Part shown: in pieces, positions 5,414-5,834 of the stretch
Layout of the letters: each line of letters starts with the position of its first letter
Numbering within the stretch: position 1 is the stretch's first letter
Assembly: GCA_964016885.1 (NCBI GenBank)
Contig: OZ024744.1
Coordinates: 19,778,001-19,842,000, forward strand
DNA: 64,000 nt
Direction of reading: 5' to 3'
Origin: Eledone cirrhosa
Lineage: Eukaryota
Position numbers and translations under genes: made by a program
Notes under the pieces: model-generated
Told to the model about the DNA's origin: nothing
Seen by the model: the letters and a program-made list of their open reading frames with translations, nothing else
Databases searched by the model: none

Positions 5414-5834
5414 ATATAAGATCAAAAGATGGTTAAAGGAGTTCCATATATTTTATTATGCGCATTTCAAAAACAAACATCATCAAGCAATAATATTTGT
5501 GTTTTCATCAGATAAAACAGGAGAACATGATATGAAGGCTAAAAAACACTTGTGGATAGTGCAGTTTTAAATCAACATATGTTGATTTAAAACTGCACTA
5601 TCCACAATTGTTTTTTAGCCTTCATATAATGTTCTCCTGTTTTATCTGATGAAAACACAAATATTATTGCTTGATGATGTTTGTTTTTGAAATGCGCATA
5701 ATAAAATATATGGAACTCCTTTAACCATCTTTTGATCTTATGTTATGCATACTCCAGTCCCACAAACTGTAGAGTGCTTCTTATCCGATATCTGCATTGC
5801 TTTATTGTACTACAATAAAACTCACCTCCTACAT
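5414..5834 (+). mobile_element. Near-perfect palindromic PLE pLTR insertion, family A, with two HHRs and a tail
   Basis: Arms of about 160 bp meet with no spacer at atcaacat/atgttgat (near 5578); HHR CTGATGA 5646-5652, GAAA 5689-5692; about 90-nt tail; in (TA)n. Confidence 0.9.

Follow-up and report, generated by a model that had tools for sequence, protein, structure and literature searches.

In elements that appear to belong to the Hydra clade of Penelope-like elements (PLEs), inserted copies end just upstream of one of two copies of a small bulged hairpin. Hairpin 1 and hairpin 2 lie between a hammerhead motif and the start codon. A copy with a short end stops before hairpin 1; a copy with a long end carries a tail, made of hairpin 1 and a spacer, and stops before hairpin 2. 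The window analysed is a stretch of 64,000 nucleotides from Eledone cirrhosa (contig OZ024744.1, positions 19,778,001 to 19,842,000), in which 20 of 24 element ends sit 1-7 nt 5′ of a conserved hairpin. Of 20 genomic 3′ ends in other organisms, 16 are found 0-12 nt upstream of a hairpin, split evenly between hairpin 1 (8 ends) and hairpin 2 (8 ends). An earlier note on this DNA had proposed that short arms and terminal repeats stop just before a hairpin, which the window count bears out, and that the hairpin fixes the boundary between pLTR and tail at two defined ends. The latter claim holds in the window and in unrelated elements and was incomplete, in that two hairpins act under one rule.

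The family A fold-back

The insertion at 5414-5834 is built around a palindrome (5416-5741) that is flanked by (TA)n and has arms of 98.8% identity. Its perfect centre lies between 5578 and 5579, with a spacer of 0 nt. The features of family A are:

5093-5413: (TA)n adjoining the short arm
5411-5578, minus: short inverted arm, ending 4 nt before the hairpin-equivalent position
5511-5457, minus: mirror hammerhead
5579-5746, plus: long arm (pLTR)
5638-5708, plus: hammerhead, minimal type I; core 5646, predicted cut 5700, palindromic stem III
5747-5834, plus: tail (hairpin 1 and spacer), long end at 5834
5751-5775, plus: hairpin 1; ACTC/GAGT lower stem, 2-nt 3′ bulge, upper stem
1127-1498, minus: second fold-back; long end 1127, hairpin 1210-1186, short end about 1498-1501

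Past the hairpin the right arm continues for 59 nt and then enters (TA)n. Taken singly, this hairpin folds with a z of -1.56. Both family A copies have the same fold-back centre, and no ORF is joined to the family in the window. The hammerhead-to-hairpin spacing of 62 nt (46-71 in Hydra-clade loci), together with a hairpin 2 in a contig of another organism (X4), suggests that family A belongs to the Hydra clade. Under the two-hairpin rule a hairpin 2 is expected after 5834 in the source element, and the X4 contig shows one: its loose end is at 5836, followed 4 nt on by a hairpin that fits the hairpin 2 consensus.

Alignment of 3,477 contigs from a further run (X1) gave, among the loose-end positions listed (9 of 73), 3′ loose ends at 5741 (11 contigs), 5746 (11) and 5834 (25), the last two entering TA. 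The biggest 3′ group among those listed is at 5733 (56 contigs), 18 nt before the hairpin, with 22 nt of different sequence preceding TA; it may represent a sister subfamily.

Identity of the window elements

Judged by their sequence, the window elements are probably Hydra-clade PLEs together with 5′-truncated or non-autonomous pLTR pieces. The full element comprises:

54073-56202, minus: Hydra-clade PLE ORF, RT and C-terminal GIY-YIG, about 710 codons, one in-frame stop
56225-56240, minus: hairpin 2, first base 38 nt from the ATG
56281-57100, plus: inverted 3′ UTR and pLTR; hairpin 1 at 57014-57058, long end 2 nt before hairpin 2

Five further remnants of the Hydra-type ORF lie within the window. 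The full ORF contains RWR (RWK-like), DKT, CNCRNRADC (CxCX5C linker), CDLC (CxxC) and CKH (CxH), matching the RWK, DKT, CxCX5C linker, CxxC and CxH by which the clade is defined in the accessible text of PMC8557442 (section 11). Among relatives the RWK region has the consensus RMRWKA, and their ORFs are about 700-730 aa long. The single short ORF of RT followed by C-terminal GIY-YIG (~710 codons), the pLTR hammerhead, the (TA)n target and the tandem and inverted insertions also agree with that description, and an optional extension is present on one of two inverted pLTRs, as expected of a PLE tail. Unlike the 30-40 bp given there, tails here are about 52-120 nt. A GIY-YIG domain search gave a weak match on a sister remnant (19934-20317) and none on the full ORF, whose GIY-YIG core, inspected by eye for absence of CCHH, has one Cys inside. 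The assignment follows from motifs and architecture compared with the published description. Hammerheads were called with a descriptor made in this analysis; Rfam, run on 20 of the 86 relative loci described below, returned no match, hammerhead or other. On the window, among the Rfam matches listed (150 of 294), all were miRNA families below gathering scores, on palindromes or TA runs.

All copies seen of the full family have CAGAAGA instead of CTGANGA in the hammerhead-like core (56930-56985, 46790, 4000-4040), possibly an inactive form or a variant. Its solos at 3847-4117 and 46703-46861 have the same 5′ boundary within 2 nt (aligned to 56853-56855), which precedes the hammerhead core by about 75 nt; this is possibly a transcription start or the edge of a non-autonomous unit.

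Three other element classes were rejected. Against a MITE or DNA fold-back transposon, the arms differ by the tail and the centres vary among copies of one family. A Helitron has its terminator hairpin within the element, just before the 3′ end; here the hairpin that goes with an end stands outside the element and is left uncopied. A non-LTR retrozyme consists of head-to-tail tandem units with a hammerhead in each, whereas family A folds back and partial tandems are limited to the 22690 pair and family C.

The window holds other repeats. One hammerhead-like family (776-989, 18669-19197, 21920-22469) has one fixed end into (TA)n and is without an RCTC/GAGY hairpin. Another (28694-29084, 39416-39780, 23795-23895), with a nuclease-like ORF piece at 57812-58327 and no hairpin by eye, resembles another PLE clade. 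A GC-rich non-LTR retrotransposon ORF with RVT_1 occupies 11073-14266, split over several frames. A large inverted repeat array at 29289-30429 (406-nt arms, 94%) showed no hammerhead or hairpin, and the palindromes at 2354-2439, 42367-42415 and 29289-30263 could be placed in no hairpin family. A dispersed SINE-like family of about 190 nt has 5 near-full copies plus fragments (207-264, 2553-2756, 18022-18222, 38006-38212, 41761-41958, 58679-58859).

Ends of the window copies

The remaining copies with a hammerhead or hairpin are:

1710-1906, plus: family B fold-back; hairpin 1835-1858, centre in hammerhead stem II/loop II
2031-2188, minus: family B fold-back; long arm and aberrant arm (41 nt before hairpin), centre spacer 1 nt
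21167-21383, plus: family B fold-back, long and short
33409-33615, minus: family B fold-back, long and short; hairpin 33480-33457
42762-45723, plus: family B inverted pair, 840-nt arms; short end 42762, hairpin 45652-45675, long end 45723
1746-1793, 2144-2188, 21200-21275, 33520-33580: family B turn-around sites
32829-33363, plus: family G fold-back; hammerheads 33170 (plus) and 32929 (minus), hairpin 33275-33313
48103: family G solo, short-ended
57212-57700, plus: family H inverted pair; hairpin 57641-57664
45754-46255: family H, second copy
32364-32762, minus: 32440 fold-back, long and short; hairpin 32426-32399
21442-21716, minus: fold-back absent from the earlier note, long and short; GTTC/GAAC hairpin 21551-21516
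31716-32363, plus: family C copy with tail at both ends (X-Y-X); hairpin 1 32244-32267, degenerate hairpin-2-like site 31834
14938 and 48599: family C solos, short-ended
3847-4117 (long), 46703-46862 (short), 2200-2249 (short): full-family solos
22689-23796, minus: 22690 tandem; hammerheads 23068 and 23760, atypical long-loop hairpin from 23374, short end 22689
38945-39321, plus: fold-back; hairpin 39233-39257, inverted arm stops 67 nt early
22496: solo of the 38945 family, short end
25552-25740, plus: solo hammerhead, hairpin (25648-25669) and long end

A divergent family-B-like solo with a short end lies at 51270-51385, and an isolated B-like hairpin at 57751-57790 (minus) stops 16 nt before TA.

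Each arm was aligned against a hairpin-bearing copy of its own family, and distance was taken from the last reference-matching base, extended over TA microhomology, to the first base of the hairpin lower stem; 4 of the 20 rule-keeping ends were judged by eye. Remeasurement upheld the arm ends that had been placed just before the hairpin in families A, B, G, H and 32440. Family A gives 4 nt (5414 copy) and 4 nt (1498; by eye, the aligner having overshot), family B 5 nt in all four cases (1710, 21170, 33615, 42762), family G 4 nt (32831), family H 2 nt twice (57212, 45754; 9-10 if the TA extension is omitted) and the 32440 family 3 nt to the printed G, or 4 to GCTC (about 14 without TA extension). 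The proposed family C and 22690 ends were likewise near their hairpins: the family C long end 32363 lies about 2-3 nt (by eye) before the degenerate site at 31834, which does not fold as a hairpin, and 22689 lies at 6 nt. Both family C short ends (48599, 14938) are 3 nt before the hairpin at 32244; the end at 22496 is at 5 nt and the 21552 short arm at about 3 nt (by eye). Solo copies without inversion can have short ends too (14938, 46862, 51270-51385).

The full family has both end classes, with short ends before hairpin 1 at 2249 (2 nt) and 46862 (about 7 nt, by eye) and long ends before hairpin 2 at 57100 (2 nt) and 3868 (1 nt). The earlier note had the last two stopping 2 nt before GCTC. 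Their closeness stands, and the hairpin concerned is hairpin 2 (56240, minus); they are reclassed as long ends because both contain their own hairpin 1 (57014-57058 for 57100). Four ends, absent from that note, miss: 2188 (41 nt), 38945 (67 nt, close to the hammerhead cut), 210 (16 nt) and 48103 (16 nt by the aligner, about 4 with one indel allowed). Copy 41695, of a different subfamily, was left out of the count.

Long arms had been described as running 35-70 nt past the hairpin; at 13 of the 14 hairpins measured they extend 35-74 nt beyond hairpin 1 before reaching (TA)n or (CA)n, and what the description missed is the second, uncopied hairpin just beyond this end. The exception is family C, where the measured 23 is an internal TATATA and the true end, 32363, lies about 96 nt beyond the hairpin. 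From hairpin start to end, tails in the window measure 60-110 nt.

Under a TA-microhomology null (p=0.39), at least 20 of 24 such ends has a probability of 1e-5, or 1e-3 for a rough family count of 9/10; same-family copies are only partly independent, family B having four different centres and one common end. A hairpin descriptor, drawn up after examples had been seen, matched the window 11 times against 2.2 (sd 1.6, max 7) over 100 shuffles. Single hairpins fold weakly (z -2.8 to +0.6).

In the window, both ends could be classed in 11 inverted copies, every one of which has a long and a short arm; two further copies have one long and one aberrant arm. With loci L082 and L086 added, 13 of 14 fold-backs are long plus short (P 9e-4 at p=0.5, inflated by shared descent); a short plus short pair in L082 was left out, its flank being duplicated as well. 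Copy-specific variants are common to both arms of one copy and differ between copies, so the arms derive from one template or one source locus, or were homogenised later. Family B turns around inside hammerhead stem II/loop II in 4 of 5 fold-backs (spacers 1, 4, 16 and 32 nt), which is likely a stall point of the reverse transcriptase.

Two hairpins in the 5′ UTR of relatives

A metagenome scan yielded 78 loci in 69 families, from the best 80 of 469 confirmed stretches, and 8 loci (L079-L086) were added later. In 42 loci an ATG is preceded by 200 nt or more of sequence, and a hammerhead core is present in 34 of them. Two hairpins lie between hammerhead and ATG in 31 of these 34. Hairpin 1 starts 46-71 nt past the hammerhead GAAA (with one finder artefact, L010) and hairpin 2 starts 105-147 nt past GAAA and 34-78 nt before the ATG, the two being spaced about 52-83 nt apart. 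By a simpler count, at least two hairpins occur in 31 of 50 UTRs versus 0.13% of shuffles. A strict form of the motif matched 71 times in 7,980 nt of 5′ UTR versus 0 in 178,548 nt of ORF. Among loci fetched once the rule was set, L080, L081 and L084 have two hairpins and L083 a variant.

The hairpin, 16-27 nt long, has the consensus GCTC-Y-(stem-loop)-R-TH-GAGC-ACT. Above the 2-nt bulge, 63 of 66 hairpins from 33 families have a Watson-Crick pair (42 C-G, 21 T-A), while no other register has more than 5; permutation gives P<1e-4 for all hairpins together and for hairpin 1 taken separately. The finder required Y-N-GAG on the 3′ side, not this pair. Pairs were counted by anchoring, as MAFFT left the 5′ stem strand of 57 hairpins unaligned. 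The lower stem has compensatory variants (ACTC/GAGT, GTTC/GAAC, GCAC/GTGC, TCTC/GAGA). Wobble pairs in the upper stem (G-U 6 vs A-C 3) and fold energies (the sense strand is the more stable fold in only 21 of 66 hairpins) do not tell RNA from DNA as the active strand.

L069 represents a family with a single hairpin and a short UTR, whose 3′ copy ends past the hairpin. The Hydra PLEs of L079-L086 lie in contigs filed as bacterial genomes or MAGs, which are most likely animal host DNA. No relative was found in the viral contigs searched.

Ends in other organisms

Against same-family references 25 end events were found, of which 20, from 18 families, were kept. The five dropped as non-ends were a contig duplication (L013-250), inversion junctions (L019, L042), a palindrome centre (L029-2394) and a case of TA only (L058). 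Among the 16 rule-keeping ends, 14 lie at 0-6 nt and 2 at 11-12 nt; the probability is 8e-12 under a uniform null and 2e-4 if only TAT/ATA sites are allowed. The four exceptions are L006, L044, L047 and L069. Ends with flanks other than (TA)n keep the rule (L008, L016, L046, L048, L055; 22689 in the window). A further 18 repeat-terminated 3′ ends listed without a reference hold no hairpin (12) or one (6), and none holds two. Among later loci, L082 has two long plus short fold-backs, L083 ends at the hammerhead cut and L086 is long plus long.

Junctions at the 5′ side also lie just before hairpins (L003, L011, L040, L074 and family C at 31716). In 4 of 5 copies shortened between hammerhead and ATG they are 0-14 nt before one, and L011 and L074 are copies of exactly one unit length.

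How the hairpins may set the ends

On the sequence evidence each hairpin probably positions the reverse transcriptase to start just upstream, a reading we hold with moderate confidence. The RT-GIY-YIG protein would bind the hairpin on the RNA and nick (TA)n DNA, and cDNA would start in the AU-rich linker 0-7 nt 5′ of the bound hairpin by pairing with the nicked (TA)n end, so that this hairpin would never be copied. Starting before hairpin 2 would give the tail, and starting before hairpin 1 a tail-less end. This requires a template in which the hairpins follow the pLTR, so the RNA would be a tandem or a hammerhead-made circle. Fold-backs perhaps arise from both sites on opposite strands: both target strands would prime, one per site on the same template, and the cDNA 3′ ends would be joined head to head. 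Tentatively, a protein dimer might hold two bulged hairpins on one tandem or circular RNA, each protomer priming from one nicked strand. Counting against initiation at the hairpins are the ends that miss, 4 of 20 in the loci and 4 of 24 in the window, and the deviating L083 and L086. Initiation alone does not explain the 5′ junctions before hairpins; these and the unit-length copies would fit a circular RNA template, as proposed in the accessible text of PMC4209133, or resolution by a nuclease.

In the latter case, which we consider unlikely, the GIY-YIG nuclease would recognise the hairpin in cDNA or element DNA and cut the AT-rich linker just 5′ of it, trimming rolling-circle or tandem intermediates and placing 5′ and 3′ junctions at the same sites. 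The 5′ junctions and the two unit-length copies speak for it, as does the family C copy with a tail at both ends, which recalls Penelope ORFs between direct 34-bp repeats (PMC2377424, in part). EN-mediated resolution was suggested by Craig 2021 (PMC8557442, accessible text), and PMC11167929 cites Pyatkov 2004 for a requirement of the Penelope tail in EN recognition. Yet the in vitro starts of the Poseidon PAc reverse transcriptase equal genomic ends without a resolution step (PMC11167929), a circular RNA template would also give unit-length copies (PMC4209133), and AT-rich linkers favour 5′ joining to (TA)n.

Improbable is a copy-back reaction, in which the enzyme, having begun upstream of hairpin 2, switches back to its own cDNA as template and halts at hairpin 1 as a roadblock, so that the short arm end is a termination site and not a start site. 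It would account for long plus short pairing and for common arm variants; also in its favour are the family B centres within stem II of the hammerhead and a proposal that rotifer PLEs self-prime at their palindromic junctions (PMC3846280, in part). However, short ends are as frequent as long ones on direct copies (8 vs 8) and occur on solos without an inverted arm, and spacers of 0-1 nt (5414, 2031, 32440) ill suit a simple hairpin loop, although a polymerase U-turn could produce them.

A third reading, that TA microhomology, microsatellite erosion at AT-rich linkers or few founder copies mimic a signal, is largely refuted and very improbable. The linkers are AT-rich, 27-39% of TA-like UTR sites are no more than 12 nt away from a hairpin, the centre is the same in both family A copies and TA overlap blurs most junctions; yet TA-weighted nulls give P of 1e-6 to 2e-4 for 20 ends from 18 families, ends with non-(TA)n flanks keep the rule and the hairpin pair is conserved with covariation. 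It is just as hard to credit that RNA ends, whether formed by transcription start, by transcription stop or by hammerhead cleavage, make up the boundary: a small number of ends coincide with the hammerhead or fall inside it (38945, L006, L044, L083) and the Penelope 34-bp repeat scored as a possible basal promoter (PMC2377424, in part), but hairpin 1 lies 46-71 nt after GAAA, so that most ends are not at the cut; Frangieh 2024 (PMC11167929) saw no RNA-seq reads that ended there, and insertion in vitro persisted with hammerhead mutants.

Relation to known systems

Tails, two PLE ends, inverted pLTRs, palindromic junctions and hammerheads, as well as two ends separated by a tail with internal initiation at two sites, are already published (PMC11167929; PMC3846280, in part). 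Poseidon PAc of Anolis initiates internally at two sites equal to genomic tail ends, and its minimal RNA extends to +172, past the start at +111-118; PAc nicks both strands and is predicted to dimerise, and an RNA binding motif is hypothesised only (PMC11167929). The elements described here resemble PAc in having two ends, a tail that is the sequence between them and an AT-rich target. Unlike them, PAc belongs to a different clade, has its sites within the ORF, and no duplicated motif is named for it (PMC11167929). By eye, +121 to +147 of its template could form a 5-bp stem, 3-nt 3′ bulge and 4-bp upper stem, 3 nt after +111-118; this is a lead only.

As in D. virilis Penelope and rotifer Pen, a tail is optional on one of two inverted pLTRs and junctions are palindromic; their ORF between direct tail repeats matches family C. 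The accessible text on those elements describes no hairpin signal and proposes self-priming on an antisense template (PMC2377424, PMC3846280). Non-LTR retrozymes are likewise short, non-coding type I hammerhead elements from PLE pLTRs, but form head-to-tail tandems, whereas most copies here are fold-backs or solos; the portions available of PMC7229834 and bioRxiv 2026.07.22.740005 give no hairpin signal.

Inversion also occurs in L1 by twin priming, where both target strands prime cDNA on one RNA. L1 arms mostly represent non-overlapping RNA, and their second site is not known to be fixed; in the present elements the arms overlap and both proposed start sites are fixed by a repeated motif.

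The available text of PMC8557442, including that of its supplement, names the formation of PLE tails and inverted insertions as an open problem and makes no mention of 5′ UTR hairpins or of what sets ends. A literature search covering few subscription journals found no account of PLE ends marked by a duplicated hairpin; RNA structures drawn in panels S1B and S2C of PMC11167929 may bear on novelty. The element class and the tail phenomenon are thus known, and a duplicated cis-element that predicts both ends is apparently undescribed.

A duplicated covarying motif in 33 families, 0-7 nt from both ends, makes PLE end formation directly testable, and the two-hairpin rule can be used for annotating the boundaries of Hydra PLEs. 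A further prediction is that copies with a short end can be mobilised again only through tandem or circular RNA, in which the hammerhead may play a part. If true, the dimer arrangement would yield the tail, the tail-less end and the long plus short inverted insertions across PLEs. PLEs are the sister group of telomerase, and the hairpins would then be a template-positioning RNA element in that sister group.
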